In this document: positions 2,567-52,380 of the stretch, piece after piece | Numbering within the stretch: the first letter of the stretch is position 1 | Layout: each line of letters opens with the position of its first letter | Origin: a virus | Lineage: Duplodnaviria > Caudoviricetes | Virus record (IMG/VR): IMGVR_UViG_3300035158_000483 | Coordinates: 1 to 52,585 of that record | DNA: 52,585 bases | Reading direction: 5' to 3' (one strand) | Notes under the pieces: generated by a model | Told to the model about the DNA's origin: nothing | The model's database searches: none | Seen by the model: the letters and a program-made list of their open reading frames with translations, nothing else | Translations under genes and position numbers: made by a program

Positions 2567-5415
2567 ACGAACTCCCTCAGATCCGCCTTGGCCACCAGTT
2601 CGGCTCTCTTGAAGCTCATCTGTACGGAATGCACGATGTAGTTACTGTAGACCTCCGGGCCGCCGTCGTGAGGCGTGTAGCGCATCTCAAGCGCATCCTC
2701 CGGCTCCCAGTGCAGTTGAGCAGCCGACGTCGGCTGCCGTGATCCAGCCTGCGACACAGCATCACGCACCATCCTCTGAGCCTCTTTGTAGGCTTCCTCT
2801 TCTTCCAGGCTCGGACAGTGGTAGGCCACAAAGTTGAGGCCGTACCGCTGCGCAGCCTCGTGGTCGATGTAGTCGCAGATCTCGGCGCCGATGATCCGGA
2901 TGTGCGTCGGTATGCGGTCCGTCTGTGTAATCCCATCCTCGTAGATGGACAGGTGCGTGCCGCCGGCGGGGAACTCAGCATCGCCGGCGCGGTGATCCGT
3001 GAACGTGCCAAGCCAGTGCTCCCATCCACTCAACTCCTCCTCGTCGTACTTGAGGGAAGCGTAACCGAAGCGGAGCACTGGCATCGCCTCGCGGTTGCCG
3101 CCCCCATCGGTCACGTACCGGACTGTACTGATGAACTTGATCCTCCTGTCCTCAATCGCGCGTTTCAGGCCGGCCAGGGCGCTGTTTCGGGAGTCTAAGA
3201 TCGTACTGTCCTTGAGCGCCCATAGCTGTGGCTGCGTGACGCGAATGTTGTCGGGGTCGTGGTCGCCGGTGCGAATGCACACGTAGCCGGCCTTGAGCAG
3301 CGCATCCTCCCATCCGTCTGTGTCGTAGCCGTAGACCGGGCCGCAGGCCAAGGTCTGCGCCTGGGCACCGTTGATGTAGGCGGTCACAAAGCGTTCGTGA
3401 GCAACAACGCGCACCGTCTTGCCGAGCATTGATTCGTCCAGCACGGCTTCATCTACCTTGACCCAACCAGAGGTGTCCTGACTCGTCTGCCAGAGCTGCA
3501 CCTTGGGTGTACCGGATACGTTGATGTAGTTGAATGCCAGTGCGGAGACCCCGGATAGTGATGTCCAGTCGCTGACTGACTTGGAACTGACTCGGAAGAT
3601 CACCTGGAATGTGTCATCATCGCCCCACTGGTCCAGCTCCTGGTGTAGCTCGAACGTCAGGTAGAAGTTTTTGACGTACAGGTCCTCGCCATCCACCGTG
3701 GGTATCCAGACGGTATCCCACTCGTTAAACGTGAACTCAGGGACGGTATAGTCCACGGACAGGGCTGTGTCGAAGTCGAGCACGCCGGCCTTGGCCGCGA
3801 TGTCCTTGAGCACCCATTCGAGCGTCTTGTCGTGCTCGTCGTCATAGGCCCACACGCCCTTGAGGACGATCTGATCGTTGTTGTGCTGCCGGACGGTCGT
3901 GCCGCGAGGATGGTCTTCCCCCTTGTCGCTCATTCCGCTACCGCGACTAGACACTTTGAACCCAGGTATCAGGAAGAAGTAGGATGCTCCCACATTGCCA
4001 CCGGACGAGGGCGTCAACGCATCCCAGTCCTCTTCTTTGCAATGACCGATTGTGATCTTGTCTACCCCGCCATCTACTGTCCAGGCAGTAATCTCTTCGG
4101 TAACTCCCAATCCGCCGCCGTCCATCACGCACAAGAGCCAACCGTACCCATCACCATCATTGCTCCAGTTAGAACCAGCAGTCTCTCGGGCAGATTCAGT
4201 CTGGCTTTTGAGGACCTGTCCGGAGACACGCTCTGTCATCATTGAGTAGTGCGAACGCCAATCGCTTTGGGTGACCTGCTCAAGCTCCATCTCCTCCTCA
4301 CCCATATGCAAGGGGGCACCGCCTTCCTCGAACCATTCGTAAGTGTCCTTGTTGGAAAAGCCGGAAGCCTCACCGTGATCGTCCGGCTCCGAGTCGTAGC
4401 TGTCCCAAGGCCCTTCGGTTTCGTCCGGCCACTGCCCCAGGTCCCGCGCTAGATGCCTCTCAGCAGCTCGGACGTGCATCACCTTGGTTTCCGGGACGGA
4501 AATGTTGCAGATGATCCCCACCTTGCCCCGATCGAAGCTCCAACCGCTGTACGCTTCGTCACCGTGGCGCACCATCTTGTGGGGTTGTCCCCACATATGC
4601 TCCAGTCTCGCCAGCTCTGTTCGCGTGGGCGAACCTGAGCTTGCGAAGTGGAACACGGTGGCAATCAACTGGCGACCGCGACGCTTCAGCTTCACCTCGA
4701 ACAGCTCGCCGTGCTTGAGGTTTGAGGTGTCAGACAAAGCCACAGACGCCAGCTCATACCACTTGTTGTTGTCGGCCTTCCCGTATCCGCTGGCGTTCCA
4801 GTCCTCGGCGCCGCGATAGAGCAGGTACAGCTTGCCAGTCACCGCGTCCACCCAGGCCGCGATGACGTTGTACTGGTCGAAGCCACAGCCGACGACGCCG
4901 AAGCCGTGCCCCAGGCGCTGAGGGCCGTGTGTGGGGGAGAGATCGTAGCCCATCCCGAACATCGCCCCACCAGCATCGTTCTCCGGCATAAACCGCGCCT
5001 TGACCGCGAAGTCCTTAGCGTCGAAGGGCTGTGTGGCGAAGGCAATCAGCGGCTTGTTGTAGGTCGCGAAAATCTGCCGGTTGTCCTCTAGCTCCTCTAT
5101 CTCGGTCTGGTCGATCTGCGCGGTCTCACCGTCCTCGCCCTCTACGGTGATCTGCCCCGCACTGACTGAGTACAGCTTGTCCACGAGGCCCAGGTTGTCA
5201 TCGTAGTGCTTGATCTGCGACAGCCACTGCCAGTCCTGGGAGCTGGCCCAGTCCCTGAGCATCCTCCAGATGATGTCCCTGCTCTTGAAGGAGAACTCGC
5301 GTGCTCCTGGTGCGTAGCGTGTGGGGATGGAGTCTATGGCCTCTACGGAGATGATGTCCATCTGCCCGTTGTATCCAGCCTTGCGCCAGAGCCATAGGCC
5401 GGGGAAGATCGCCAT
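2563..5415 (-). CDS. Large minor tail/baseplate protein (950 aa), probably the C-terminal part of a gene split by one in-frame TAA
   Basis: Acidic, Trp/Gly-rich, beta-type composition; located downstream of the tape measure; in frame with 5485..7227. Confidence 0.65.
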   Translation of the reverse strand: MAIFPGLWLWRKAGYNGQMDIISVEAIDSIPTRYAPGAREFSFKSRDIIWRMLRDWASSQDWQWLSQIKHYDDNLGLVDKLYSVSAGQITVEGEDGETAQIDQTEIEELEDNRQIFATYNKPLIAFATQPFDAKDFAVKARFMPENDAGGAMFGMGYDLSPTHGPQRLGHGFGVVGCGFDQYNVIAAWVDAVTGKLYLLYRGAEDWNASGYGKADNNKWYELASVALSDTSNLKHGELFEVKLKRRGRQLIATVFHFASSGSPTRTELARLEHMWGQPHKMVRHGDEAYSGWSFDRGKVGIICNISVPETKVMHVRAAERHLARDLGQWPDETEGPWDSYDSEPDDHGEASGFSNKDTYEWFEEGGAPLHMGEEEMELEQVTQSDWRSHYSMMTERVSGQVLKSQTESARETAGSNWSNDGDGYGWLLCVMDGGGLGVTEEITAWTVDGGVDKITIGHCKEEDWDALTPSSGGNVGASYFFLIPGFKVSSRGSGMSDKGEDHPRGTTVRQHNNDQIVLKGVWAYDDEHDKTLEWVLKDIAAKAGVLDFDTALSVDYTVPEFTFNEWDTVWIPTVDGEDLYVKNFYLTFELHQELDQWGDDDTFQVIFRVSSKSVSDWTSLSGVSALAFNYINVSGTPKVQLWQTSQDTSGWVKVDEAVLDESMLGKTVRVVAHERFVTAYINGAQAQTLACGPVYGYDTDGWEDALLKAGYVCIRTGDHDPDNIRVTQPQLWALKDSTILDSRNSALAGLKRAIEDRRIKFISTVRYVTDGGGNREAMPVLRFGYASLKYDEEELSGWEHWLGTFTDHRAGDAEFPAGGTHLSIYEDGITQTDRIPTHIRIIGAEICDYIDHEAAQRYGLNFVAYHCPSLEEEEAYKEAQRMVRDAVSQAGSRQPTSAAQLHWEPEDALEMRYTPHDGGPEVYSNYIVHSVQMSFKRAELVAKADLREFV

Positions 5416-5484
5416 ATCTCCATCGGCGTCCAGGTAACGGCCCAGGTAGCCCGTGCTCTCAGTGACTGGGTAGTGCTTGCCGTG

Positions 5485-7227: not shown

Positions 7228-7631
7228 ACCGCTACGAGCTCCACTTCGGCCCAAAAGACGGCATTGGTGCCGGATAGCATCGGGGATCGGTTCTCAAACT
7301 TCAAGTCCCCAACGAATACCACGTTGTGTGTCTTGCTGTCGTCCGTCTCGGTCAGCGTGAGCACGTTGTTGGGCGGGTTTCCGAGACGGAAGATCGCCTC
7401 CAGATCGGCCTTGGTGCCATAGCTGCCGCCATCCGGATCGGTCTCGTAGACCTTCAGCAGATACTTGAAGCGGTCAAGGACCGGCGCCGATTGCACATCA
7501 ATATGGCCAGTGACCGTCACCCTCACCGTGCTCTTCTTCTCGATGATCGGTCTGTGGCCCTGAGACAGGACCCGGAAGTGCTTCGGGTCTTTGGTCGGTG
7601 CGTCTAGTGTGATGTAGCCGTTGATCGCCAT
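7224..7631 (-). CDS. Distal tail-like protein (135 aa)
   Basis: Short ORF immediately after the tape measure, translationally coupled on both sides; call is by synteny. Confidence 0.5.
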   Translation of the reverse strand: MAINGYITLDAPTKDPKHFRVLSQGHRPIIEKKSTVRVTVTGHIDVQSAPVLDRFKYLLKVYETDPDGGSYGTKADLEAIFRLGNPPNNVLTLTETDDSKTHNVVFVGDLKFENRSPMLSGTNAVFWAEVELVAV

Positions 7632-10600: not shown

Positions 10601-13600
10601 GCCGGGCAGTCTCGCAATCTCCCGCCTGCGCTTGACGATGCGCCCGGCCAGCTTAGAGCCGACTCCCTTGACCTGCTGTAGTTGCTCTGCGGTGGCCGTG
10701 TTCAGGAAGCCGAATCCTGTTGTGGTCAATTCGGGTTCAGGTGGAACGACGCTCTCGAAACGCTGTTGCATCAGATCGGCCTGCGCCGTCGCGGCCATCA
10801 TCGGGATGGCCGAGCCGAGCTCGCCCTCCATATAGGTCTTGGCCGTGGTCACGTACTGTTGCATCTCCTGGTTGTTCGATTCGCCAAACCGTGTTGCGCC
10901 CTTCTGTGCGTGACCGAGCCAGGTGGCCATCTGGTTGGCCATCTGCCGGTAACCTGGCGTGACCTCGCCTTTGTCCTGGGTGATGGCTTGAGAGGCTTCT
11001 AGGAACTGAGGCCCGTACATCTCCAAGCCCTCTACGGCGGTCTTGAACTTGCTCTTCGACACGCCGAAGGCCCACTCCATCGTGTCCTTTAGGTCCTGAC
11101 CGAGCTTGGCCATCCCTTGTGGCACTGAAGGCCCTTCGTCTGGAGGGCTGCCAGGGGGGCCACCTGGAGGAGGGGGTGGGGCGGCCGGTGGAGCACCGGT
11201 CGTCCTTCTTGGCGGTCCTTGGCTCCCTGCGCCTCCAGCAATCGGCTCTGAGGGAAGTGGAGCTTCGCCGCTCTCCATAAACGCCTGCACGCTGTCATAG
11301 CCCTTCTGCTTGGCCATCCGAGACAGCATCACGGTCCGCTGCATTGCCTGCTCACGCGGATCGCCCTGAGACCAGCCGCCGATGCTCCGCGACGTAACCT
11401 CGCCACCGGTGCCTGTGCCGCCCAGGCTGACGCTGGATCCGGACATCATCCTCTCGACGTCCTCTTCGGGCATACCCATCTGACCGAGTATCTCACCAAA
11501 CAACCCGGGTGCTGCGTCCATCCCGGCCTGTACGCGAGCGGCCAGGGGGTCTGCGTCAGCACGCTTGGACAGTGAGGATCGCCAAGCCTTCGCCCTGGAC
11601 CTGATCGTGTTGAAGAGCTTGCGTTGGTACGGGTCAAGGTTGGAGACTATTTCGTTGACGACGTCTTCCTGCCCGCGACCGAGGGCCATCGCTGTGGCCG
11701 TGAGACCGATCGGGGTCTCTGTCTCCCACTCGCCGGTCAACCGAGCGCGTTGACGCGCCAGCTTGGCACGCTCGAAGTCATCCTCTGCACTGCGCCAACG
11801 CTTGACCAGCTCCTCAGCCTCTCCCCAGTTCCGTCTCGGAAACCCTAGCTTTGCGACCAACTTGGGGCTCAAGTGCTTGGCACTCATCAGCGCCGGCATA
11901 AACGCCTCCTGGATGCCGGCAGGACCAGCGGAGACGTTCAAGTTTGAGAAGTCTCCCTGGCCACCTGGGCCGCCCAATAGCTTGTCGAAGTAGGACGCGC
12001 CGCCCTTGTGCAAGGAGAGCGAGTTCAGCATCCCGACGACCTTCTGCAGCTCAGGCGGCAACTCCTTCGGCGTCTGTGTCTGGCCGTGAATCACTCCGAA
12101 GAACTTCTCGGCCTCTTCTCCGAGGCCCATCGAGCGAGCTACGTGCTCCACGTCCTCAAGGGAGGCGTACGTCGGGCCGATGTACTGTCGGAGTTTGTTC
12201 GTCCAGGCCATCGCAGACCCAACTGTCTCGGCGTCGAGCTCGTGAAGATTGCGGGGGTCCATCGCGGCCCTCAGCTCCTCCAGGTTGCGGAACTTGTGTC
12301 CCCTCGACAGATCCTGGCGCTGCATCTCTTCGACGGCGGTCTGCGCTTGCTTTGCGACGAAGCCTTCTGTTGCCCAGGGGATACCAGGCTCCCCACCAGG
12401 CGTCTGCTGGCCAGGGAGCTTGAGCCGGCCTTCTGGATCGACCTCGCCCATCATCAGGTTCCAGAACAGGTCCTCGTCAAAGTCGCGCCCTAGGGCCTCG
12501 GCTAGCTTGGGGTTGATGACCAGACCAGTACCCTCAGATAGCTGCATCCCGCGCTCTTTGGCGACTTCGGGGTGGATGACGTTGAACATACGGCTCAGGG
12601 GCCAGTCACCAGGCATCGGCTGTCCCATCACGATGGAACCGAGCTTCATCCCTTGTTTCCAACGATGCTCGAACTTGTACTCCCTGGTGCCCTCGATGTG
12701 CCGCTGCGATGGGTCCATCCCGTAGGCTCGCATCACGCGCTCAACCGGTGCTGTGATCTCCGTAGAGGCCAACGCAGAGCTGGAAAGCGCGGGACCGCCG
12801 AACGCTTTGGGGATTGGCGTGCCCAGGGCGCGTCTGAGGAACTTGCGGCTTTCAGCGAGCTTGGACTGTGCGCCGAGCGCCCCCTGTAGGGCTTCCCTAC
12901 GGGCCTTAGAGCCGACTTTCTCGGATAGGCCGAGGAGAGCCTTGCCATAGAGCTGCCCGTACGCCGTGGCCTCTTCTGTGGACAGGGAGCCGGACGCCAT
13001 AAAGCGCAGAGCGTGCGCCGGCGCGGCCAGTACGCCTTCCTCAGTAAGCAGCGGCTTCTGTCCCCACTTGGTCTGTGCCGCCTGTTGCATCACCGCACGC
13101 GCAAGCACGGCCTCTGTAGGCTCCTCACCCTCTTCACCAAGGGACATAGCGCGACCAGCCGCGACAGCTTCCTGGACCGCCTTGGGGTCAGGGGCGATAG
13201 CGTTCTTGGGATACCCGTGCGGGCCTCCGGAGATCGACGCTTTGATGATACCGCTGTACGCCTGCTTGAGGTCGTAGCCTTGCTTGCGAATCTCGCTGAA
13301 GTATTCAGCTACGCCAGGATGCTCAGCGAAGCGTTCCTTGGCAACGCGCTCCAGGCGCTGGACCTCGCGGAAGGGTAGGTGGGCAGGCTCTCGGAGCGCC
13401 CAACCGCGCCGGTACATCTGGAAGAACTTCCCCTTGAGGAAGCCCATCGGCTTCTTGCTCTCCAACCGGTAGTAGCCCTCTCCGATCTCAGTGCGGTCGA
13501 ACGTGTCCTCTGGAAACTGCCAGAGCTGAGACTTGTGGACACTGGGGATCGTGACCGGCTTCTCCGTGTAGAGGCCGCCCTCGCTCTCGGGACGCAGCTT

Positions 13601-15451
13601 CTCCTCGACGAAGGCGTTGTAGAGAGGCTCGCTGACATCTTTCCACGTCTTCTGTTTCATCCCCTCCATCGTGAGATCGTCGTACCCGCGCCGGCGCAGC
13701 GTGGACAGCATCTCGTTAGGGTGTGCCATCCAGTAGGAGTAGGCCAACTGTGTCGGCTCCTTGATCTGCGTCATCCCATAGCCCTTCTCGCCGTGGAAGG
13801 CCGAGGGGCTGCCGACGCCGCTCATAAACTTGCTCCAGAACGTCTTTGAGGACAGTCGGGCCGTCTCAGGGGATGCTCCTTGCTCCATCACAGCACGGAG
13901 CACGCGCCGATCCTCATACTCACCCTTGCGCTCGTTGTAGTAGCGAGCGTTGACGACGCTGTAGTCCTTGAGCTTCGCCCAGTCCCAGTTGCGGCCAAGG
14001 CCGATTTTCAACGGAGCCGCGCCCTCGAAAAGCTCAAGCTTCCCACTGTCACCGGTCCACTCCGTCCCGCGCTTGACGACCTTGGGTTCCATCCCTTCGG
14101 GGAGGGGGATATCGTAGGTGTGGGCGCGCCGTACGGAGCCGATCCAGCCCTGCGGCTGCATCTCTATACCCTCTGGCAGCCACTCGCCCAGGGAGATCAT
14201 CTGGTTGGTGATGACGCCACGGTTCCGGCGCATTGCTGTGGAGCCGAGGCGCAGCGGGGACTGTGCGGTGATGTTCTCTCCCGTCTCGGAGTAGTAGTCG
14301 AACATCTTGTAGACGCCCTGGAGCTGCGTGCGCTTGGCGATCTTGATCAGCCTCGAACGGTCCGAAGGGTCGTAGGGGGAGAGAATACTCTCGCCCTTGT
14401 GAGGTCCTGCCCACAGATCGGTGTAGACGCGGCTCGGCCACAAGCGGGATGCGCCTTGGCGCGTTACGTATCCTTCCGGCCAGTCCTCGGGGTCCATCCC
14501 CTCGACTGAGCCCTCGATGCCCAGGTCAGGTCCTGTCAGGCCGGTGCGGTAGCGGATCTGCTTCGCTGCTGGCAGGTACTTCCAGTGACTAGGCCCCTTC
14601 ATCGTGGCCACCACGCCGAGGCCGCCCTCTACGGGCCGGTAGTCAACCGGGGGCATTCCGCCGAACTCAGCGCCCAGGTTCTCCTTGAGGTAGGATGCGG
14701 CCTGGCCGGCGTTGGCACCTGCGAGATTAGCGCCGGCGAGGCGCTGCGAAAGCTCCTGTCTGGTGAGGCCCCATCCCATAAACGCACCGAGCATCTGCTC
14801 GTAGCCCTGTGTCCCAGGCTGTGCGGAAGGGTCGTAGGGGACTTTGCGGTGGACGTGAGCGCCTACTCTAGCGTTAGGGTCTGCAGACCGGACATTCTGC
14901 CGGAAACCGCTCAGGATACCGCTCTGCCGCTCGGCCTCTGCCTGGACCTGCTCAGGCGTCAGACCTCTGACACGTATGGAGCTAGGGGGTACAACCGATC
15001 TGTTGCGCTTGAGGATACGTCCAGCTCGGGACAGATTACCGCGTTGCAGGAAAGCCGTCGGATCTTCGGTCTGATAGCTCTCCGTGGGCGTAGCGGCCGG
15101 TTGCTGCAACCTGGTGGACTGGCCTCTACCGCTGTACACGCCGACGTCCAGAAACGTGGCCCACCGATCGGCGGCAGTCTTCTGTCGCTCGTGCTCGCGC
15201 ATCAGGTCCCGCTCGCGCAAGTCGAGCTCCATATCCAGTTCAGTTTCCGAGACGGAAGACGATGGGGCTGTGGCACGATCTAACGCGGCCTCGAAGGCCG
15301 TGACGCTCTCGCCCTCTTCTGGCGCGAAGTGGTGTCGAGCGCCTTGCGTGCGATCGTACTCTATTCCCTCTGGATCGTCGGGGTCATCGCCTTGGAAATG
15401 ACGGCCCCTGGCGTTCCAGAGCCAGTCGTCTTTTGAGTAGTCTCTCGTCAT
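7631..15451 (-). CDS. Tape-measure protein (2606 aa) with a putative N-terminal two-barrel RNA polymerase and an internal HhH domain
   Basis: Position after tail tube and chaperones; Ala/Gly-rich hydrophobic stretch and long C-terminal E/R/Q coiled coil. Contains GLVINPKLAEALGRDFDED (aa ~976-994), a Pro-rich linker and LNTATAEQLQQVKGVGSKLAGRIV...VHGIG. Confidence 0.75.
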   Translation of the reverse strand: MTRDYSKDDWLWNARGRHFQGDDPDDPEGIEYDRTQGARHHFAPEEGESVTAFEAALDRATAPSSSVSETELDMELDLRERDLMREHERQKTAADRWATFLDVGVYSGRGQSTRLQQPAATPTESYQTEDPTAFLQRGNLSRAGRILKRNRSVVPPSSIRVRGLTPEQVQAEAERQSGILSGFRQNVRSADPNARVGAHVHRKVPYDPSAQPGTQGYEQMLGAFMGWGLTRQELSQRLAGANLAGANAGQAASYLKENLGAEFGGMPPVDYRPVEGGLGVVATMKGPSHWKYLPAAKQIRYRTGLTGPDLGIEGSVEGMDPEDWPEGYVTRQGASRLWPSRVYTDLWAGPHKGESILSPYDPSDRSRLIKIAKRTQLQGVYKMFDYYSETGENITAQSPLRLGSTAMRRNRGVITNQMISLGEWLPEGIEMQPQGWIGSVRRAHTYDIPLPEGMEPKVVKRGTEWTGDSGKLELFEGAAPLKIGLGRNWDWAKLKDYSVVNARYYNERKGEYEDRRVLRAVMEQGASPETARLSSKTFWSKFMSGVGSPSAFHGEKGYGMTQIKEPTQLAYSYWMAHPNEMLSTLRRRGYDDLTMEGMKQKTWKDVSEPLYNAFVEEKLRPESEGGLYTEKPVTIPSVHKSQLWQFPEDTFDRTEIGEGYYRLESKKPMGFLKGKFFQMYRRGWALREPAHLPFREVQRLERVAKERFAEHPGVAEYFSEIRKQGYDLKQAYSGIIKASISGGPHGYPKNAIAPDPKAVQEAVAAGRAMSLGEEGEEPTEAVLARAVMQQAAQTKWGQKPLLTEEGVLAAPAHALRFMASGSLSTEEATAYGQLYGKALLGLSEKVGSKARREALQGALGAQSKLAESRKFLRRALGTPIPKAFGGPALSSSALASTEITAPVERVMRAYGMDPSQRHIEGTREYKFEHRWKQGMKLGSIVMGQPMPGDWPLSRMFNVIHPEVAKERGMQLSEGTGLVINPKLAEALGRDFDEDLFWNLMMGEVDPEGRLKLPGQQTPGGEPGIPWATEGFVAKQAQTAVEEMQRQDLSRGHKFRNLEELRAAMDPRNLHELDAETVGSAMAWTNKLRQYIGPTYASLEDVEHVARSMGLGEEAEKFFGVIHGQTQTPKELPPELQKVVGMLNSLSLHKGGASYFDKLLGGPGGQGDFSNLNVSAGPAGIQEAFMPALMSAKHLSPKLVAKLGFPRRNWGEAEELVKRWRSAEDDFERAKLARQRARLTGEWETETPIGLTATAMALGRGQEDVVNEIVSNLDPYQRKLFNTIRSRAKAWRSSLSKRADADPLAARVQAGMDAAPGLFGEILGQMGMPEEDVERMMSGSSVSLGGTGTGGEVTSRSIGGWSQGDPREQAMQRTVMLSRMAKQKGYDSVQAFMESGEAPLPSEPIAGGAGSQGPPRRTTGAPPAAPPPPPGGPPGSPPDEGPSVPQGMAKLGQDLKDTMEWAFGVSKSKFKTAVEGLEMYGPQFLEASQAITQDKGEVTPGYRQMANQMATWLGHAQKGATRFGESNNQEMQQYVTTAKTYMEGELGSAIPMMAATAQADLMQQRFESVVPPEPELTTTGFGFLNTATAEQLQQVKGVGSKLAGRIVKRRREIARLPGASGFATKKGVTSVHGIGQTSLAQMIPAIEEAGVGVAEDGVVDNTKLLNKRMRTLADHLEDWGKQVGPAVKNTQELSDAQKQWTERLAREVQSVTGSALEQAQETGDVGLATAAMRLKGSDAYRQMIQASEDDWARSLEGAAPSGGIGEWFKTSFFGAEGPMKGVDRVMGQLTSGWRLMMMRRLWGMTGGVAMGNIPVAAESAQTMMGAAAATMPVSAAPVSGIGMGLMEAQAQKKAGQVAMGRAAYRAYGDIQQFLTTQTGGAAAGVGLPALGTGAVAGTLATMLGGSFTGVGLPVALAAGGYGLYSYIKSMRGDQEQMALNLAQGKRGVATEKYYRQPQVAGTREDRGWFYNLTHMSATAGGMGGIGGAIMADVPTEVGRGTPNDPRVAMMQDPNVLGLTPEGTRLYYKGRRLKAGRFQGMTAAERAASIQYAAKTYRPEGVTAERAAEMIGEYYEMTPGAVGQMTPREILESDVIQSGAITGRGPRWWSQQAGQMGYLGTDWQKAYSQMKGLEMAEVNRRMEIAGRWGAATRLGVGRTEIFEAAASGGLPVVSGTALNNAIGMIGQIAPTPGFGGMSISSWGSALRATQQRLTQARANGNYVGGWGMNTLWGLQDAMTAENTRYSQAQAGLQMERIAAQRRYLWGGGTPTAPGPDSLWGLQDVSRRFNYVQQMGGISPISGRAYTGAFNFSAQQANMSLAHTMASAGLSLRHTLESTGLSRRMYMARWGFQQEDMEDKFEDLERQRERAATVYGWKMQDWHQQFGRSAIEFGWRMEDYDENIRRATGYQRERLMRQRERDVVRRKWETTDLQEEKDRMEQRREWEEEDFERKKENLEELKERNQKLHELRLEQFDMREEHAKESHALRVSQAQESHALRMKQLEERKAAYQEEYEHQQKITTLQREHQAEQLEFQERQAGLSAAHAEAMRELQERYTNIQRSIATMATDFNNEIIDGLVELLQEAGAILDNYNTPSGLPPREGGLPY

Positions 15452-17312: not shown

Positions 17313-18377
17313 TTAGGTTAAGGCGCAGTAGGCGTCTAGCCATTTGCGCCAGTGTTTTTCAGTTGCTCGGTGTTCGATAACCCACTCGTGACCCTGCTTT
17401 TGAAGACGTCGACGCAAGCGCCAGTCCTCGATCAACTTGGCGATCTGTGCGTACCACTCGTCGCTGTCGTAGTGGTCCCTGACGAAAAGGGCGTTGTGAC
17501 GGTTGTTGCACACACGGCGATACACCTTGCAGTTCGTGACGACAGGCACCGCACCTCCGAAGCTTCCGTCACGGAGAGGCCGCTTTGAGGCCATATACTC
17601 CAAAGCCTTGATGCCAGACTTGCTCTTGTTGAAGCGATCATCCGGCTCCAAGGGGGCTAGGCCGATGTCGATCTGGCGGATCAAGGCGGGGTAGCTCTGG
17701 AAAGGCACTTTGGCACCGATCGTCAGGCGGGGCAGCTCCTTGAGATAGTCCGGCACGAAGCCGCCTATGAAGAAGCGCACGTTGGGATGGTCCTCTGCGA
17801 TCTTCCGCAGGGCAGGTCCGACTGGTCGCCAGTCGTCTGCGTGAGTATCTGTGCCGACAATCCCTACGGTGAGCGCGTCGTCCACACGGTGCTCGTCTGG
17901 AGCGAAGGGCTCCCACATCTCCGGTACAATCGTGTTGGGCAGGACAAAGACCTGCTCGTTGTACCGCTCCATCACATCGCGCAGGTAAGGCGTAGAGGCG
18001 GTGCCAGCCGTGCAACGCTCCAGCACGCTGGTCGCTATCCCCTCGCCGGTGACCTCTCTGTGCGAGTTGGTATAGTCGTCATCCCACTCACACACGACAG
18101 CCTTGCCGGCTTTCTGGAGCGTCGCGATGAACGTCTCGGCCTCGCGCTCGTGGCCAAGAGGGGCGATAACCCTGGCCAGCACGAAAACGTCATACGTGGC
18201 TGGGTCTAGGTGCCCCATCTGCGTGGCCCTGAATGCCCGATCAATCGGCATCCAATCAGCCTGATAGCCGTGCTCGCTCAGCTTCCGATACGGAAAGATG
18301 ATGCGATAGGCATCGCAGGCCGTTGGCCCGTTCTTGCGCTCGCCAGCGAACAGCCCCAGCACTCTAGGCTTCGTCAC
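17313..18377 (-). CDS. Glycosyltransferase, GT-B fold/GT4-like (354 aa)
   Basis: Motifs ACDAYRIIFP, VCEWDDD, ASTPYL, VLPNTI and DIGLAPLEPDDRFNKSKSGIKALEY. Confidence 0.85.
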   Translation of the reverse strand: MTKPRVLGLFAGERKNGPTACDAYRIIFPYRKLSEHGYQADWMPIDRAFRATQMGHLDPATYDVFVLARVIAPLGHEREAETFIATLQKAGKAVVCEWDDDYTNSHREVTGEGIATSVLERCTAGTASTPYLRDVMERYNEQVFVLPNTIVPEMWEPFAPDEHRVDDALTVGIVGTDTHADDWRPVGPALRKIAEDHPNVRFFIGGFVPDYLKELPRLTIGAKVPFQSYPALIRQIDIGLAPLEPDDRFNKSKSGIKALEYMASKRPLRDGSFGGAVPVVTNCKVYRRVCNNRHNALFVRDHYDSDEWYAQIAKLIEDWRLRRRLQKQGHEWVIEHRATEKHWRKWLDAYCALT

Positions 18378-19574: not shown

Positions 19575-19643
19575 GTTAGGGTTATCCTTTCCGTCACGGA
19601 AGAGGGTAGGGGGCTAGGCCCCCTCCCTCTCAGCTAGTCGATC

Positions 19644-30584: not shown

Positions 30585-30698
30585 AATCACCCCCCCCTGG
30601 CCTCAGTGCCAGGGGCTAGTCTCTTTCCGAGACGGAAGGAGGCTGGCCCCTGTCGCGGAGAGTCCGCGCAGGCAATAGACCCCAAGGAGGTCAATACG

Positions 30699-34848: not shown

Positions 34849-35328
34849 ATGTACCTGGACGATGCTCTTCTCAAGGCACTCAAGCCGGCGCCCCAGACGT
34901 CGGCCTCACTTGCGGAGGAGATAAACCGCGACAGCCGCAAGGTCGCAGGCCGCTTGCGCTCTCTCCGCAACGACGATCTGGTCACATACAGGGATGGTCT
35001 TTGGAGCCTGACCCCTCGCGGCCGAGAAGCCGCTGAGATTATGGCAGACAATGGGAGCGACAATGGTCGCAATCTCGAAGACCTTCCCAACTACAACGTG
35101 CTCGGAGACCGCCTGGGCCTGATCTGGCCCCCGGATTCCGAGACGGAAGCGAAGCTCGGCGATCCCGGTCTGTGCCGGGTCTGCGGTGCGCGGTGTGTCT
35201 GGCAGAACCTGATCGGTGACGTCTGGATCGGGGCCTGCACGGTCGTTGGTCTAGGCGATCACCGCTCCGAGCACGTCATTACCCAGTCGGAACTCAAGGC
35301 GTACAGCGCAGACAACCCCGCATTCTAA
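34849..35328 (+). CDS. Winged-HTH protein with a C-terminal Cys cluster (159 aa)
   Basis: SASLAEEINRDSRKVAGRLRSLRNDDLV...WSLTPRG and CRVCGARC. Confidence 0.6.
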   Translation: MYLDDALLKALKPAPQTSASLAEEINRDSRKVAGRLRSLRNDDLVTYRDGLWSLTPRGREAAEIMADNGSDNGRNLEDLPNYNVLGDRLGLIWPPDSETEAKLGDPGLCRVCGARCVWQNLIGDVWIGACTVVGLGDHRSEHVITQSELKAYSADNPAF

Positions 35329-35419
35329 CCTCTCTCTTCCGTGACGGAAGCCCTATCTTCCGTCACGGAAAACTCCCCCTCATAGACGTATCCGACAGTC
35401 TACGATTATCTCCGGTTTC

Positions 35420-39700: not shown

Positions 39701-40824
39701 TCCAGTTCTGCTCTGTCGTGTTCTACGAGCCCGTCTACAGCCTGTCCACGATGTGGCAGGCTGAGCGCCGCGTGTGGCGTCTCGGCCAGGCGAAGCCGGT
39801 CAAAGTCGTCTACCTGGTCTACCGCGACTCCTGGGAGGAGAACGCGATTGCCCTGATGGGGAAGAAGAAGAGGGCAGCGCAGATGGTCTACGGAGACGAT
39901 ATCGGTGGCGCAATCGTCCCGGAGGCCGACACAGCCGGCTCCTTCAAGGCCGAGATGATGGCGGGCGCTGTGGAAGGCGCGGAGCTTCCCGATCTCGCGG
40001 AGATGTTCAACACGGACGCCTTCGACCTCGATGACACACCGGTCGAGACGCTCGGAAGCATTTCCGAGACGGAAGCTGACGAGCCGGACGACGTGGAGTA
40101 CGAGGGGTACACACCGGCCACGTTCGACACTATCGAGGTCGGCGCCGAGGTCTGCGAGGATCACCCTGAGTACGGCCGAGTGAATGGCGTGATTGAGCAG
40201 ATCAAGGATAAGCACGTCAAGATCAGGTACACCGACACCTACGATATCGGTGAGAACTACGTGGTCTACCAGGAGATGCTCGATGGCATCTACCTGGGTC
40301 ACCGGTCCGAACCCCTCACGATGGCGCAGCTCGCCGCTCGGATGAAGGCGGTGAAACGCAGTAAGAGCAAGCGGCGGAAGGAAGAGGACGACGAAGCCAA
40401 GCAGCTCTCGCTGTTCAGCGAGCCGGAACCAGAGGAAGAAGAGGAGCCGGTCAAGGTGATCAGCACGTACACACCTCAAGACGCTCTCGACGATGGTCTC
40501 TACGTCGATGTCTCCGATATGGCCACGGAGGCCGGTTTCCGCTGGCCGGTCGTGATGACTCGCGGCGTCCATTACACCGTCGAGGACATTCCGCAGAGCC
40601 AGGCGCACCAAGGCTATGACGGTCGGCTTTGGGACCTCTTGAACGTGTTGCGCTACACGCTCAAGAAGACGAACGGCGACTTCCTAGAGCCGGTCAAGTT
40701 CAATATGGTGATGCACCACAAGCCGAACGGCCACGTTCGCAAATGGCTCACGCTGACCGTCGTCGGGCAGTATACAGAGGACGGCGAGCCTATGCTGGTG
40801 GTGATGCACCCCGAGGAGATGTAG
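36778..40824 (+). CDS. Amino-methyltransferase fused to an SF2/SNF2-like helicase (1348 aa), DUF6094-like N-terminus and DUF6573-like C-terminus
   Basis: Methyltransferase motifs GYYPTP, DPCAGTG and NPPY; helicase motifs GEMGVGKT, ADEVH, GLTGT, ETGLDL and QAERRVWRLGQ; C-terminal VISTYTPQDALDDGLYVDVS. Confidence 0.85.
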   Translation: MARLAAQEKLGYYPTPSAVIPLIASHLKRNGKPYRVLDPCAGTGAALAQLEEELGGNVETLGVELSPKRAEKLKHNAEKALHTAWNGVLMTDASVALLFLNPPYDHARWATQKREEAEFLRRTVEKLQYGGVLAFLIPQHVLADRGTARLLAGHFDNLSVYRFPDEEYEAFGQVVVFGIRTAWNPPDGEAIDAVREYADADLPQLTKGDGQYELPASPAKINFRRQSLDARYKIGKASALGWPDGLKDAMKPKPEITMKPLIPPRKGHIAMLLASGMFRTTPIVRDGDVTLLKGRAVKYQEKTETIEDDTRTTRIVDKFRTTVGLIGPDGIRVVDNNEAELRRLMQEYGAEITEKILETEPLYNFDPTDEEWEMLGTLSKNRDPLPGQDEPGLLPSQKHLAMAGLRSLQDDNTLLIQGEMGVGKTTIAAALIDMLDAYPALVLVPAHLVKKWRRELKEVIPGVETYHIERIGKTSSMEHEVNDVREFLELWHSGQLGDKAVAVMKTTMAKAHGGWGSGVWHRYTLWQDNGSQAEQTERRPFNNTLKVYKAMRDDLPTRATVVQEDWWKGDLPRNEREQEVYDARQQVLKQAIRYPVCPVCGQAQYETVDGVTQRVMSFKTFEKNALHCGAHVRDGEHVRRCQSALYDYGKYRYRRYAAADYIKDHADGEFQMLIADEVHYHKGRSDRGRAFARLLCASKYHVGLTGTIFGGTPESIYWILHRMSINGIQEDYDYNSSLRFMERYGVLEQVIVDKGYTSRYGSFNASRRVRNDTKKLPGVSPAILEYLLKDVLFVNLDQLGVDLPPYQDRAVQVSGTPEQADQWNSLSDTLLERAIEDKRYLSLWLQWALGRPNSAFRSEEAVKEWRDDDGEIERVEKIMDLPKIEGVLPKEQWLVDFVRDESEKDRAVIVYCRQTGTRDIRDRIRDLLRDEGFDVAVLDSSVSTSDREAWIERNASDVDVLITNPRLVETGLDLIQFCSVVFYEPVYSLSTMWQAERRVWRLGQAKPVKVVYLVYRDSWEENAIALMGKKKRAAQMVYGDDIGGAIVPEADTAGSFKAEMMAGAVEGAELPDLAEMFNTDAFDLDDTPVETLGSISETEADEPDDVEYEGYTPATFDTIEVGAEVCEDHPEYGRVNGVIEQIKDKHVKIRYTDTYDIGENYVVYQEMLDGIYLGHRSEPLTMAQLAARMKAVKRSKSKRRKEEDDEAKQLSLFSEPEPEEEEEPVKVISTYTPQDALDDGLYVDVSDMATEAGFRWPVVMTRGVHYTVEDIPQSQAHQGYDGRLWDLLNVLRYTLKKTNGDFLEPVKFNMVMHHKPNGHVRKWLTLTVVGQYTEDGEPMLVVMHPEEM

Positions 40825-40910
40825 CGCGAGCTCGGGCGCAGCAGTTTCCGTCACGGAAGAAAGTTACCGGAGTTACCGCTGTGGTCTGGGAAAGCGGTAA
40901 CTGCGGTAAC

Positions 40911-41959: not shown

Positions 41960-42000
41960 GCGTGAGGGTCTAGGCTTCCGTCACGGAAGGCAGGGAGGGG

Positions 42001-42600: not shown

Positions 42601-42621
42601 AGGGTCAAAGTCTCCAAGGTT

Positions 42622-44629: not shown

Positions 44630-44994
44630 TGATGAACAAGTATTTGGAGCAGCAACAGGAGCTGAGACAACTAGCGCACGAGATCTTCTCGGCTGCTAAC
44701 AGATTACAGGAAGCCGCAGCAACCATTCTGGATATCCAGAAGCAACGGCGCGACAAGCGCTTGCTACAGGAGATGCTCGACAGGGTTACCGCGGGCAGCG
44801 TGGATATCGAGGACGTTGTTGCGTTCTACCTGGAGAACGATCTGAGCTTAGACGACACGCCGAACGCTTCCGAGACGGAAGCGACTGGCAAGGCGTGTAC
44901 CGTCTCGTTCGACGACGACGGCAAGGAAGGAGGGAAGCGAGTGATCCACGTTGACCGGCCGGACTATCAAGCCCCGGCCGCCTGCGAGGATTGA
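44629..44994 (+). CDS. Hypothetical protein (121 aa)
   Basis: TAATG-coupled start, MMNKYLEQQQ. Confidence 0.6.
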   Translation: MMNKYLEQQQELRQLAHEIFSAANRLQEAAATILDIQKQRRDKRLLQEMLDRVTAGSVDIEDVVAFYLENDLSLDDTPNASETEATGKACTVSFDDDGKEGGKRVIHVDRPDYQAPAACED

Positions 44995-46716: not shown

Positions 46717-47493
46717 ATGGAGAAGACGCGAGAGCAGATCATTGCAGAAAAGACTTGGACTTGCCCGGACTGCGGCGAGGACGTCGAGCCCCTGATCCTA
46801 GACGATGGCCACGTAATCAAGCGCCGGTTCTGTGACTGCCCGGCTGGCCAGGAGAAGGAAGAGGAGGTCTTCGGCAAGGCGTATCTGCACAGAGCGCAGC
46901 GCAAACGCTGGGTTGGGGATTCGAGGCTTGACCCCAACCTGACGTTCGATAACTACGAGGGGGTCCACAAGGCGCGGGCAATCGGTTACGTCACGTCGCT
47001 ACTGGCTGGAGACGAGGGCTGGTGCTGGATTCACGGCCCTGCCGGCACGCACAAGCGCCACTTGGCCAACGCGATGGGGATGCTGATCCTGAACCAGAGC
47101 AAGCAAGATCCGCGTGTGCAATATCTCGACTGGGCGCACTTCGAGCGCGAGATGAGGAACTCGTGGGACGACAGCGAGAGATCCGACTACCCGCACCAAT
47201 TCCGCCAGGCGCAGAAGGCTCACCTGCTGATCGTCTCCGGCGCGGGGAAGGTGTCGCGTAATGCGTGGGGTGTCCGGCAATTCGTGGACCTGATCTCCTA
47301 CCGCAGTCGAGGGCACAAGCCTACCGTCTTTGTCTCGCACCTGCCGTTCCGAGACGGAAGCGATTCGCTGTACCAGGTGCTGCGGGAGACTGGACTCAGG
47401 GACGTTCACCTGTTCCTCGAGGAGTGGACGGCGATATTCGAGCACGAGATTATGGAGCAGCCAAACGGGCTGATCATATACACCGGGAGGTAG
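46717..47493 (+). CDS. DnaC/IstB-like helicase loader with degenerate ATPase motifs
   Basis: Zn motif CPDCG...CDC, TFDNY, HGPAGTHKRHLA, LLIVSGAG and YRSRGHKPTVFVSH. Confidence 0.75.
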   Translation: MEKTREQIIAEKTWTCPDCGEDVEPLILDDGHVIKRRFCDCPAGQEKEEEVFGKAYLHRAQRKRWVGDSRLDPNLTFDNYEGVHKARAIGYVTSLLAGDEGWCWIHGPAGTHKRHLANAMGMLILNQSKQDPRVQYLDWAHFEREMRNSWDDSERSDYPHQFRQAQKAHLLIVSGAGKVSRNAWGVRQFVDLISYRSRGHKPTVFVSHLPFRDGSDSLYQVLRETGLRDVHLFLEEWTAIFEHEIMEQPNGLIIYTGR

Positions 47494-47812: not shown

Positions 47813-48250
47813 ATGTCTCAGTGGACAGTGCCCGAGCCGCCGGCGTGGATGGACGATGCTCCGTCCCCGGAGGACAGCGTGCTTGTTTCCGAGACGGAAG
47901 GGTACGGTTGGCAGAGCTACGAGGACTTCCGAGACACCGTAAGAGAATACGCCGATACTGAGCCGAATGGCTACTTTGGGAAGATCGACGAGGACACAGC
48001 GCACAGAATCGCGGCAAAACTGGCCCATATCGTCCGCCCCTGGGTGAAGGCAACACAGCCGATGGGGTCCTGGGAGGATATGACGCGAACGATGCGCTTA
48101 ATCGTCCTCAACGACATTACCGGCCTCAAGCTCTCCAGTACCAAGGACCTGCCGGCTGGATACAGCCACCTGGCGGGCATGCTTGGAGCCCGGACGTGGA
48201 GGCCTGATACCACAGTAGCCGACATTATCCGCGACAAGTTTGGATTCTAG
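47813..48250 (+). CDS. Hypothetical protein (145 aa)
   Basis: CCCATAGGAGG ribosome-binding site. Confidence 0.65.
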   Translation: MSQWTVPEPPAWMDDAPSPEDSVLVSETEGYGWQSYEDFRDTVREYADTEPNGYFGKIDEDTAHRIAAKLAHIVRPWVKATQPMGSWEDMTRTMRLIVLNDITGLKLSSTKDLPAGYSHLAGMLGARTWRPDTTVADIIRDKFGF

Positions 48251-50307: not shown

Positions 50308-50856
50308 ATGGATATCGCAGAACTTCGAGAGACCGAGTTGAGCGACGAAGAGATCTTGGAGCGCTTGCTATTCGCTCTAGCACGCGCCAGAGAGGACGCT
50401 CACCGGATCAAAGGGATGAAAGACGATGCGTACGAAGCGATGCTCCAGACGGTCGAGGGGCAAGAATACCTCACACTCAGCGAGGAGCACAGTGAAGCCA
50501 GGGACGCGGCCAAGCAATTCAAGGCGATGGCCGGCGATCTCGCGGTCGAGCTCTTCGATGGCCAGGACAAGGACGTAGCGCCTGGCGCCAGCATTGCGAT
50601 CTACGCCAACTTCGTACTCCACGAGGACGATGCAGTCCGATGGGCCGTGGACAACGGCCACAGCATTCTACTCCGCCCCGACACCAACGGCTTCAAGAAC
50701 TTGTTGGACCGGTTGCCGGAGGAGATCTACGAGATCGAGGAAGAGCCCCGCGCCAGGATCAGCCGCAAGGATCTGAGCGAGTTGTACCCAGTCGAGACGG
50801 TACCCGCCGCCGCTTCCGTCACGGAAGAAACCGACGACTACGATATCCCCTTCTAG
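50308..50856 (+). CDS. Hypothetical recombination-module protein (182 aa)
   Basis: Helical acidic protein ending DDYDIPF. Confidence 0.65.
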   Translation: MDIAELRETELSDEEILERLLFALARAREDAHRIKGMKDDAYEAMLQTVEGQEYLTLSEEHSEARDAAKQFKAMAGDLAVELFDGQDKDVAPGASIAIYANFVLHEDDAVRWAVDNGHSILLRPDTNGFKNLLDRLPEEIYEIEEEPRARISRKDLSELYPVETVPAAASVTEETDDYDIPF

Positions 50857-51173: not shown

Positions 51174-51186
51174 AGGAGGCAAACCG

Positions 51187-52380
51187 ATGCTCACGTCTAT
51201 GCTGCAGCTTCGCAAAGGTGCAGAGAAGCGATCAGACAGCCCTGGCCCAGATCTGTCTTACTTCCGCCCCGTTGCCGAGGAAGGCTTCAAGCACCTCGGC
51301 GTTGTGGATGCGTTCCGAGACACCTATGGCTCCGAACCCCGTACGGTCAAGGCCATTCTCCCTGGTGCCAAGGCCGACGATGTGTGGTCGTGGCGCTACG
51401 AGGAATGGGGAGGCAACAACCTGCTGAAGCACGCCTGCGACGGCGACTACGTTGTCCAGTATTATGACCGAGGGCGACGAAAACACGTGCATATCGGGGA
51501 TGAGATGATAGGGCCAGATGGAGAGGCCAAGACATTCGAATACGGCGATATGCCGTGCCCTTACCACAGCGGTCAGCGCCAGCGCACGCGAAAGCGGCCC
51601 GGATGCCGGCCCAGTGGCCACCTCCAGCTCTTCCTTCCCGATCTGGTCGAGGAGTTGCAGGCGCGTGGCGTGTCCACGGTCGGCGTCGTCACCCTCAAGA
51701 CGACGTCGATCTACGACTGCCTGCACATTACGGAGTTCCTCAAGGCCGTGGAGCAGCAACAGCGAGCTGCCGGCAAGACGCTACTCGGCTTCGAGCTCGT
51801 CGTCCGGCGCGTGGAGAAGGAGATCACCTGCTCCTGGGACGGCGGCCGCAAGCGAGACACAAAGTGGATGATCCAGTTGGCAGAATCCAGCGATTTCGCC
51901 CTGCAGAGGTTGATGCAGGCACGTGAGGCACAGTTGATGGCCGAGGCCGCTGAGGTCGAGGAGCAGTTCGTTGAGCCTGAAACCCCAGAGCCGCCAGGAG
52001 GCGACTTAACGAACGTTCAGGGAGAGGGAAGCCCAACACCCATAGAACCGCCAGAAATCCCAGAAAACGGCCAGGAACGGGCTGAGAAGCCTGCTGAGAG
52101 CCAGGAAGAGGTGCAGACTGGCGATGACTGGCCCGGTGGCGATATCACGGCCTTCTTCAACTGGGCAAACGACGAGCAGGGCATTACGCCGGGCGATGCG
52201 ATGAAGATGCTCGACGTGACCACGATGTCGGAGTTCGTCGGGAGCCCCGAGGACGCTCGGGAGCAAATCCTAAAGGCCCTGGGACCTGACACAGACGCTT
52301 CCGAGACGGAAGAAGCTCCAAGCTACAACCAGGCACTGGACCCCGAAAAGGAACCGGAAGAAGACAAAATCCCCTTCTAA
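51187..52380 (+). CDS. Recombination-directionality-factor-like (Gp3-like) protein (397 aa)
   Basis: LRKG...DLSYFR, ACDG, CPY...CRPSGHLQLFLPDL...GVVTLKTTSIY; acidic tail ending KIPF. Confidence 0.6.
   Translation: MLTSMLQLRKGAEKRSDSPGPDLSYFRPVAEEGFKHLGVVDAFRDTYGSEPRTVKAILPGAKADDVWSWRYEEWGGNNLLKHACDGDYVVQYYDRGRRKHVHIGDEMIGPDGEAKTFEYGDMPCPYHSGQRQRTRKRPGCRPSGHLQLFLPDLVEELQARGVSTVGVVTLKTTSIYDCLHITEFLKAVEQQQRAAGKTLLGFELVVRRVEKEITCSWDGGRKRDTKWMIQLAESSDFALQRLMQAREAQLMAEAAEVEEQFVEPETPEPPGGDLTNVQGEGSPTPIEPPEIPENGQERAEKPAESQEEVQTGDDWPGGDITAFFNWANDEQGITPGDAMKMLDVTTMSEFVGSPEDAREQILKALGPDTDASETEEAPSYNQALDPEKEPEEDKIPF

Follow-up and report, generated by a model that had tools for sequence, protein, structure and literature searches.

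Why would a phage genome repeat one exact palindrome along its length, even inside its protein-coding genes, and what reads that palindrome? The question is raised by the IMG/VR virus record IMGVR_UViG_3300035158_000483 (Duplodnaviria; Caudoviricetes), which is rated 63% complete; its entire 52,585-base stretch was analysed here and is referred to as the window. The element concerned is the 13-base word TTCCG-N3-CGGAA (TTCCGNNNCGGAA). This word is all-or-none in form, it is selected as DNA and not through the peptide that it encodes, and it represents a trait of a phage lineage whose members carry private words of the same kind.

An exact palindrome is dispersed through the window

The motif has 26 exact matches in the window, compared with a mean of 0.05 and a maximum of 2 in 100 dinucleotide-preserving shuffles. 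A sequence-only reading of this DNA had reported at least 24 exact copies where about 0.05-0.06 would arise by chance, together with a near match at 17564 and a spacer constrained mostly to TCA/TGA/AGA/TCT. The observation is real and stronger than first noted: 25 copies are present from 4489 on, one more lies at 1934, and 22 of the 26 spacers take one of the four named forms (Table 1). A single arrangement of the two arms is used, with TTCCG and CGGAA separated by three bases at 26 sites and by every other spacing from 0 to 14 at none. The half-sites alone are not enriched (70 TTCCG and 66 CGGAA in the window, 26 of each inside the motif). The palindrome is almost without degenerate copies. 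The near match at 17564 (TTCCGTCACGGAG) is indeed the sole site with one mismatch, compared with 1.75 in 20 first-order Markov simulations, and sites with two mismatches number 14, compared with 23.6 simulated under the same model.

The spacer is TCA/TGA in 11 sites and AGA/TCT in another 11, with GGC, GGA, ATA and TCG occurring once each, and its central base is G or C in 25 of the 26 sites. A perfect six-base half-site is kept on one side in 24 of the 26. The flanks weakly prolong the symmetry (YTTCCG...CGGAAR), position -1 being C in 29 and T in 17 of 52 symmetrised positions. The perfect symmetric form is TTCCGTSACGGAA, and the ideal form of the 13-mer is YTTCCGT-S-ACGGAAR.

The DNA word dictates the peptide within genes

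Inside genes, 13 of the 17 coding copies are placed in the frame TCC-GNN-NCG-GAA, which reads S-x-T/S/P-E (P = 3e-4). These copies had been described as often encoding SVTE or SETE, and the proteins of the window bear this out: there are 12 tetrapeptides of the type S[EV][TS]E where about 0.9 would be expected, and 11 of these have exactly the codons of the motif, among them GAA, a minor codon for Glu (25% usage). Because of this excess and of the fixed codons behind it, it is the DNA word that determines the peptide rather than the other way round. In coding DNA the predominant variant is AGA, which supplies a Glu codon; it is what coding DNA tolerates, with Glu replacing Val.

Intergenic copies carry the perfect form

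Nine of the 26 sites are intergenic (19589, 24414, 30625, 34239, 34263, 35337, 35358, 40846 and 41976), an assignment made after three start-codon corrections, and non-coding DNA makes up only 6.4% of the window (P = 2e-5). The fully symmetric TTCCGTSACGGAA is found at eight of the nine intergenic sites, compared with three of the 17 coding sites. The three intergenic copies singled out by the sequence-only reading (19589, 40846 and 41976) are among the nine, and the close pairs 34239/34263 and 35337/35358 that it listed were recovered, as was the excess of copies in the right arm. The left arm (minus strand), which encodes the terminase, the portal, the capsid, a minor tail protein and a 2606-residue protein, holds nine sites. 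The other 17 lie in the right arm, which encodes a single-stranded DNA-binding protein (SSB), a methyltransferase-SNF2 helicase, an O-like/DnaD-like initiator, a DnaC-like loader and DnaB. The sites are densest where five of them fall within 1.13 kb, inside and on both sides of an operon whose last gene is of winged-helix-like type.

Terminator-like hairpins adjoin four of the intergenic sites (19589, 30625, 40846 and 41976), and several others stand directly 5' of ribosome-binding sites. The window has strong sigma-70-like promoters, and none of its sites overlaps a sigma-70-like promoter core, in agreement with the earlier statement that the copies do not coincide with -35/-10 elements. Two sites are located at about -93 of predicted promoters (35422-35450 and 40911-40938).

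Comparisons with other DNA gave three further observations on the sites. As a lead only, among 24 of 170 loose ends, contigs of the public run X4 match the window up to 31974 and 35135 and then diverge, at the left edges of the sites at 31976 and 35136. The idea that sites mark mosaic junctions was rejected, as 3 of the BLASTN segment ends among relatives lie near sites, where 4.4 were expected. Among 40 of the 179 variant places relative to public-run contigs, none falls in the 15 sites checked, an uninformative result, as about 0.4 would be expected by chance.

Related phages carry words of their own

Alignment of the capsid retrieved 74 metagenomic relatives (L numbers) and 21 IMG/VR relatives, and the whole IMG/VR records G467-G471 were analysed. 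A dispersed exact inverted repeat is present in 12 of the 30 metagenomic capsid relatives of at least 6 kb, compared with 3 of 80 unrelated viral contigs examined with the same detector. Related phages lack the word of the window itself; four of the five whole IMG/VR relatives have an own word of the same kind, in 9 to 35 copies. Across the capsid lineage these words are exact, 12-14 bases long and present in 3-35 copies in the available DNA of each phage, examples being TTCCGAYRTCGGAA, TTCGATNNATCGAA, CTTCCACAGGAAG, AGAACCGGTTCT and one asymmetric word (Table 1). A dispersed private word is a family trait. This is observed even though the window shares only its structural module and SSB with its relatives.

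The asymmetric word belongs to G471. It has the half-site AGAACCG in common with the palindrome of G470, is co-oriented with the gene in five of the six copies inside called open reading frames (ORFs), and changes strand with the genome arms. In G467, in which no dispersed word was found, the repeat CTGGAAAT-GCCTTCGGC-GAAATTTGCATT occurs locally, close to the two ends of the genome (784, 1810, 65664 and 66134).

Searches further afield returned little. TTCCG-N3-CGGAA occurs in none of four IMG/VR terminase relatives (41-53% identity), one of these four, L157, has TTCCCCCGGGGGAA three times in 14 kb, and a scan of IMG/VR with a single 14-mer gave only single, chance-like copies among the matches listed. 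Among 50,697 isolated phages, megablast with 12 kb and tblastn with the capsid found no near relative, and tblastn with the terminase found weak partial matches only.

Sites are evenly spaced and favour gene ends across the lineage

The sites are spaced more evenly than random, with a coefficient of variation below the simulated mean in 11 of 11 genomes; the effect is significant in G468 (P < 0.0002), G470 (0.024), L278 (0.019) and L290 (0.042). They also favour gene ends: on crude gene calls, the nearest gene boundary is no more than 100 bp away for 83 of 152 sites, compared with 31% expected. The intergenic share of sites is 17-31% in G468-G470, where non-coding DNA amounts to 3-10%. One junction is conspicuous, in that the interval between terminase and portal holds a site in 12 of 14 genomes with differing words, compared with 3.9 expected under random placement, a null that ignores the gene-end preference. 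Several copies are kept even within a giant gene of 7-12 kb. Sites inside promoters, of which the window has none, occur in two relatives: in L281 and L287 a site fills the 17-base -35/-10 spacer of an orthologous promoter, again with differing words. In G470 a site lies at about +12 of a promoter.

Candidate readers of the word

Within the window, the best candidate binder, as yet an unproven one, is a 159-residue protein predicted to be winged-helix-like and Cys-rich, since five sites lie in and around its operon. The methyltransferase-helicase, which the sequence-only reading had considered as a protein loaded at the sites, cannot be the general reader because its gene is shared only with G469; G468, G470 and G471 have words without it.

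A centromere role of the parS type, also suggested earlier, was not supported. No ParB-like (ParBc/KorB) domain was found in the window proteins scanned with Pfam, a scan that left several small ORFs aside. Four relatives have an actin-like (ALP_N) gene with a small adaptor (G468, 1-1250; G469, 13241-14870; G470, 51061-52655; G471, 27495-28942), and none was found in the window. The word as the centromere of such actin-like (type II) partition was rejected because G469 and G468 have separate iteron arrays upstream of the gene (GGTATACC and GATCTATGGAT repeats, respectively). The presence of the gene suggests that the relatives bearing it can be kept as plasmids or position their DNA.

A proposed docking site for a phage protein

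The explanation that we favour, tentatively and at less than even confidence, is that the 13-mer is a double-stranded docking site, similar in its working to stoperators or KorB operators, for a protein that is specific to the phage and probably dimeric. The sequence-only reading had likewise named a dimeric-protein binding site, possibly stoperator-like. The site, selected at DNA level, is upheld by its dyad symmetry, its perfect intergenic form, the DNA-dictated codons and the words of the relatives; for the binder, candidates are all that emerged. We infer the binding of the sites by a protein, its phage origin and its role from the following. A palindromic site implies a dimer, and the exact word that each related phage has to itself implies that the specificity of the binder co-evolves with the sites. 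Sites are kept about every 2-3 kb, with a preference for gene junctions, and those within genes occupy places that the encoded protein can accommodate. One protein would thereby control the phage DNA genome-wide through dispersed sites. It might block transcription running along a prophage, as with stoperators; alternatively, it might silence or organise DNA over long range from dispersed exact palindromes, as with KorB operators.

Several observations weigh against this proposal. Words of the same build are abundant in some bacterial chromosomes: AACGGCCGTT is present 2146 times in G033, an Ardenticatenaceae genome of 4.9 Mb (reversed control 6), and 1263 times in the 7.1-Mb genome G036 (control 21), and TTCGA-N3-TCGAA (TTCGAAWTTCGAA-type) has 105 copies in the 0.7-Mb small-genome bacterium G472 (control 1). 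Further, no prophage of the lineage was met in 401 Chloroflexota genomes, so the genomes used as host controls below may have been the wrong ones; there the capsid profile had 0 matches, an empty answer that shows nothing by itself, the terminase search of genome contigs gave no match, and G215, a genome in which the relatives' word occurs twice, lacks a capsid homologue. The 159-residue candidate has one homologue among 5.8 billion proteins and none in the relatives or IMG/VR, and its AlphaFold model is unusable (predicted local distance difference test score 43.5). No protein family tracks the presence of the word across genomes, apart from unrelated accessory genes found in word-bearing relatives and not in G467, namely the actin-like protein with its adaptor, RecA, DUF6378 and an HNH-like protein (the last common to the window, G468, G469 and G471).

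Even spacing is not significant in the window itself (P = 0.14). Across genomes, promoter-like elements number about 92, and only 10 of them have a site within 150 bp. Tolerance, not function, could explain why sites favour gene ends and junctions. The promoters of the window bear a different operator, TGWACG-N2-CGTWCA, so the palindrome is not the main promoter or switch operator. A temperate lifestyle is suggested only by one relative classed as a provirus (G469) and by the divergent promoters and RDF-like gene of the window.

Alternative readings

The strongest competitor, which we judge possible if on the unlikely side, is that the 13-mer is a host-type iterated palindrome, abundant in the host chromosome like HIP1 or DNA uptake sequences, and that the phage simply carries the host density. 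The same host process (biased repair or a host DNA-binding factor) would act on the phage, or the phage would have to look like host DNA, and the different words of the relatives would then reflect different hosts. The chromosomal words given above have this build, and they show a phage-like pattern, with one copy per 2-7 kb, exactness, use in coding DNA and a frame bias. The relatives of the phage DnaB that rank first and fourth in closeness come from G033 and G036, and 13 of 74 bacterial DnaB loci are positive with the repeat detector used for the phages. That no phage-encoded binder was found, and that G467 has no dispersed word, would also fit.

The word of the window, in contrast, is not enriched where it was sought. 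The nearest relatives of its DnaB (43-45% identity) are almost all from Chloroflexota, a kinship that offers only a hint of a Chloroflexota host, and three partly overlapping samples of 37, 401 and 401 genomes of that phylum were examined. TTCCG-N3-CGGAA has 0-10 copies in 36 of the 37 genomes and 24 copies in the remaining one, compared with 6 for the reversed control. TTCCGTSACGGAA reaches at most one copy per genome in the phylum-wide 401, with any copy in 20 genomes, and TTCCGTSACGGAAG at most two in the 401 from the class of G033, with any copy in four. The relatives' word TTCCGAYRTCGGAA has at most two copies in each of 251 Chloroflexota genomes. The suggestion of the sequence-only reading that the phage mimics a host-wide palindrome was not borne out for the word of the window in the genomes searched, and keeps some weight because such words exist in the phylum. 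Also at odds with a host-wide origin are the greater length of the phage words, which specify 12-14 bases compared with 10 in the host words, the syntenic junctions kept despite different words, the sites that fill promoter spacers in L281 and L287, and the asymmetric, largely co-oriented word of G471. Such features of placement speak for a role in the phage that depends on position, and they would suit a binder encoded by the host just as well. A literature search for iterated palindromes in phages or Chloroflexi found only papers on HIP1, an iterated palindrome of cyanobacteria (PMC6604393).

Some side observations concern these bacterial sequences. G033, G036 and G472 are the genomes of loci L161, L164 and L191, respectively. 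CTTTCGAAAG has 7 copies in 21 kb (L217 and L219). The reversed control word GAAGGCASTGCCTT has 9-21 copies in some Anaerolineae genomes (G567, G491, G525, G619, G625, G631 and G653) and is itself mildly iterated there.

It is improbable, in our estimate, that the word is a self-marking signal by which a motor or nuclease tells phage from host DNA, such as a Chi-like stop for a helicase-nuclease or a recognition point for packaging. Such a signal would explain the need for a copy every few kilobases. It fits the regular spacing seen across genomes, where even the longest gaps are short, the copies kept inside the giant gene, where no junction exists, the rarity of the word in the bacterial genomes searched, the distribution of the HNH-like protein, and the strand switch of the G471 word between genome arms. 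No nuclease, terminase or helicase was linked to the word, however; a Chi-like signal needs no fixed-spacing palindrome, and the half-sites on their own show no enrichment. The promoter-spacer sites of L281 and L287 would be left unexplained.

A single-strand hairpin signal, with a stem of 5-6 bp and a three-base loop acting in DNA (N4-type promoter, priming) or in RNA (punctuation, stability, translation), is a rather remote prospect. The form fits the build of the N4 promoter, an inverted repeat with a 5-7-bp stem and a three-base loop; N4 has three such promoters at one genome end, serving early genes, with a G-G-A loop and a sheared G:A pair (PMC4496689). Predicted stems reach -3.4 to -4.2 kcal/mol as DNA and -4.1 to -5.7 kcal/mol as RNA, the terminator-like hairpins and ribosome-binding sites beside intergenic copies would suit an RNA signal, and an N-G-A loop can be read on one strand of 24 of the 26 sites. 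This apparent loop rule is equally explained by the perfect half-site kept in 24 of 26 sites together with coding constraint, and a hairpin is not needed for it. The loops of the window are T-S-A or A-G-A, not the G-N-A of N4 with its sheared G:A pair, the 26 copies are dispersed, and loop orientation has no consistent relation to gene strand, both orientations occurring. Most copies (17 of 26) are within coding DNA, and the presence of strong sigma-70-like promoters also speaks against this reading.

No sign of the polymerase that would use such promoters was found either. The sequence-only reading had proposed the 2606-residue protein (7631-15451, minus strand) as a virion RNA polymerase loaded at the sites. 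By sequence methods it shows no polymerase signature: it has no PHROG match, Pfam detects only a helix-hairpin-helix motif (residues 1583-1643), and comparison with solved structures gave a weak match of that region to ComE operon protein 1 (E 0.24). In each of the six genomes compared, a counterpart of its gene, 7-12 kb long, follows the tail genes. The N4-type promoter was accordingly not supported. Across the lineage, predicted stems are weak (-1.7 to -4.3 kcal/mol as DNA; about -1.7 for AGAACCGGTTCT, a four-pair stem in G470), stem sequence never co-varies within a genome, and the relatives' words have little or no hairpin potential. Weak stems that do not co-vary and an asymmetric G471 word that shares AGAACCG fit a homologous DNA-binding protein with drifting specificity, not a structural hairpin signal.

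Finally, it is very improbable that the word is an iteron of the phage initiator (45510-46706), with the five-site cluster at 34.2-35.4 kb as the origin and the rest as loading or titration sites: the sites are dispersed, none lies in the initiator gene, and relatives with no homologue of this initiator still have dispersed words. The idea draws on the presence of initiator, loader and DnaB in the window, on the cumulative GC-skew minimum at about 36-38 kb, and on 28 IMG/VR contigs with local arrays, in which two TTCCG-N3-CGGAA stand within 30 bases; several arrays lie inside ORFs upstream of DnaB, and 4 of 10 array-bearing ORFs scanned have HTH_36 or Phg_2220_C domains. These contigs hold only 2-4 local copies in 28 of 28 records searched, and no protein of the window or of its relatives resembles their initiators (E up to 1). 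Origin iterons of HTH_36-type initiators were rejected as an explanation at the sequence level. As an observation in its own right, the unrelated viral contigs L127, L129, L137, L139, L141-L144, L149 and L153 have local (G/A)TTTCCG-N3-CGGAAA(C/T) arrays, several of them inside initiator ORFs (HTH_36, Phg_2220_C) upstream of DnaB and reading S-x-S/T-E, like lambda-type origins.

Other features of the window

The second operator, TGWACG-N2-CGTWCA (GAACGTTC variant), stands directly 3' of the -10 box at nearly every strong sigma-70-like promoter (29040-29170, 32200-32290, 40955-40975 and 42625-42765). It resembles a LexA box of Gram-positive/Chloroflexi type, or it could be the site of the neighbouring 213-residue protein (42001-42642).

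A group I intron (Rfam RF00028, 76 bits; 20744-21021, minus strand) lies between the capsid ORF 19644-20711 and the upstream ORF 20930-21286. The matching sequence is contiguous with the capsid gene in G467, so the capsid gene of the window seems to be split by the intron; the capsid of G469 is also in two pieces. In the terminase (24461-26365, minus strand), residues 56-190 have 32-34% identity to a region that is annotated, in Planktothrix phage PaV-LD and in a Microcystis phage, as DnaB helicase. This N-terminal part may have been inserted as a mobile domain, for example an intein or endonuclease.

Table 1. Sites of the 13-base word in the window, the candidate binder gene, and the words of related phages
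Feature	Position or length	Strand	Spacer or word	Context or copies
Site	1934..1946		GGC	coding, frame S-G-P-E on minus strand
Site	4489..4501		GGA	coding, S-V-P-E
Site	7379..7391		AGA	coding, other frame
Site	11829..11841		TCT	within 2606-residue gene
Site	15245..15257		AGA	S-V-S-E, close to 5' end of 2606-residue gene
One-mismatch copy	17564..17576		TTCCGTCACGGAG	only such copy
Site	18283..18295		ATA	coding, close to a gene start
Site	19589..19601		perfect	intergenic; gap between capsid gene and next gene; G+C-rich hairpin alongside
Site	22296..22308		TCG	S-A-T-E, 39 bp before portal stop
Site	24414..24426		perfect	intergenic; terminase-portal junction; Shine-Dalgarno-like run on one side, ATG of ORF 23951-24412 on other
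Site	30625..30637		AGA	intergenic; 3' of hairpin, upstream of SSB (start re-set to 30699)
Site	31445..31457		perfect	coding, S-V-T-E
Site	31976..31988		perfect	coding, S-V-T-E
Site	32983..32995		TCT	ORF codons 7-11, S-V-S-E
Site, first of pair	34239..34251		perfect	intergenic; upstream of operon 34294-35328
Site, second of pair	34263..34275		perfect	intergenic; centres 24 bp apart; right before ribosome-binding site
Candidate binder gene, 159 residues, winged-helix-like and Cys-rich	34849..35328	+		operon bracketed by four sites, fifth inside
Site	35136..35148		AGA	S-E-T-E in linker of candidate binder gene
Site, first of pair	35337..35349		perfect	intergenic; after operon 34294-35328
Site, second of pair	35358..35370		perfect	intergenic; centres 21 bp apart; about 93 bp upstream of predicted start, promoter 35422-35450
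Site	40062..40074		AGA	S-E-T-E in acidic linker of methyltransferase-helicase
Site	40846..40858		perfect	intergenic; 3' of methyltransferase-helicase, by long hairpin; 93 bp upstream of predicted start, promoter 40911-40938
Site	41976..41988		perfect	intergenic; immediately 5' of terminator-like hairpin, convergent genes either side
Site	44868..44880		AGA	coding, S-E-T-E
Site	47347..47359		AGA	DnaC-like loader gene, other frame
Site	47887..47899		AGA	coding, S-E-T-E
Site	50814..50826		perfect	coding, S-V-T-E, 30 bp before a stop
Site	52299..52311		AGA	coding, S-E-T-E, 69 bp before a stop
L278, L295, L299, L281, L258, L265			TTCCG-N4-CGGAA, mostly TTCCGAYRTCGGAA	7, 8, 6, 4, 3 and 3 copies
L257, L311, L290			TTTCG-N4-CGAAA	5 copies each
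L293			TCCGACGTCGGA	3 copies
G467	67.5 kb			no dispersed word
G468	73.9 kb		TTCGA-N4-TCGAA	35 copies
G469 (classed as provirus)	79.9 kb		CTTCC-N3-GGAAG	24 copies
G470	54 kb		AGAACCGGTTCT	17 copies
G471	80.2 kb		CAGAACCGACTATG, asymmetric	9 copies

Discussion

The closest known counterparts of the proposed docking sites are the stoperators of Cluster A mycobacteriophages such as L5 and Bxb1, which are described as 20-30 sites per genome, most of them away from promoters, with a distinct consensus in heteroimmune phages (PMC6550527). In both cases tens of nearly identical sites, 13 bases long, are spread along the left and right arms of a genome of about 50 kb. A few stoperators lie in promoters (PMC6550527); in the lineage studied here, sites inside promoters were seen in L281 and L287 and none in the window. 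Stoperators are bound by the immunity repressor, which halts elongation there, and the subset in promoters, that of the repressor included, acts as true operators. The stoperator repressor is described as a monomer on an asymmetric site (PMC9283540). The 26 sites of the window and the 9-35 of its relatives are of the same order, related phages here also have distinct words, and the asymmetric word of G471 is co-oriented with genes as noted above. Unlike stoperators, the site of the window is palindromic, its spacer orientation has no consistent relation to gene strand, most copies lie in coding DNA and the promoters use another operator; the phage lineage is unrelated, and no repressor was identified here.

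The IncP plasmid RK2 has a dozen KorB operators (OB), each an exact 13-base palindrome centred on G or C, spread over about 60 kb. They lie at, near and far from promoters and are bound by one dimeric global regulator. The palindromes of the window are likewise exact and occupy promoter-distal and intragenic places, and the two sites at about -93 resemble the promoter-distal class. The differences are that no ParB-family protein was found among the Pfam-scanned proteins of the window, which covers 63% of the genome, that the density is about twice as high, and that this is a phage and not a plasmid. HIP1-type palindromes and DNA uptake sequences are exact, lineage-specific words that occur about once per 1-3 kb in coding and non-coding DNA. 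The exactness, the scarcity of degenerate copies and the use of both kinds of DNA are common to the window and HIP1. HIP1 is, in contrast, a property of cell chromosomes; the phage word stands at chance level in the bacterial genomes searched, is longer, and is syntenic among phages.

In the literature search made, the family trait of private dispersed words appears to be undescribed. More speculatively than the docking site itself, this uncultured lineage of 50-80-kb phages may use a fast-evolving phage protein that reads a private 12-14-base word to control or mark the whole genome, whether for immunity-type silencing or for telling self from non-self. It would then represent an independent, palindromic and dimer-based counterpart of stoperators outside actinophages, with a switching of specificity that includes spacer length and symmetry.

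If a phage protein reads the words, the lineage would provide orthogonal protein-DNA pairs in a natural series, given the eight or more different words seen here, and a second, independent case of whole-genome control through dispersed sites, best known so far from one mycobacteriophage group. The words are easy markers for sorting the metagenomic fragments of one phage. Should they instead be shared with hosts, they would help in host assignment, and the host-wide 10-base palindromes of some Chloroflexota and of a small-genome bacterium would extend the HIP puzzle beyond the cyanobacteria.

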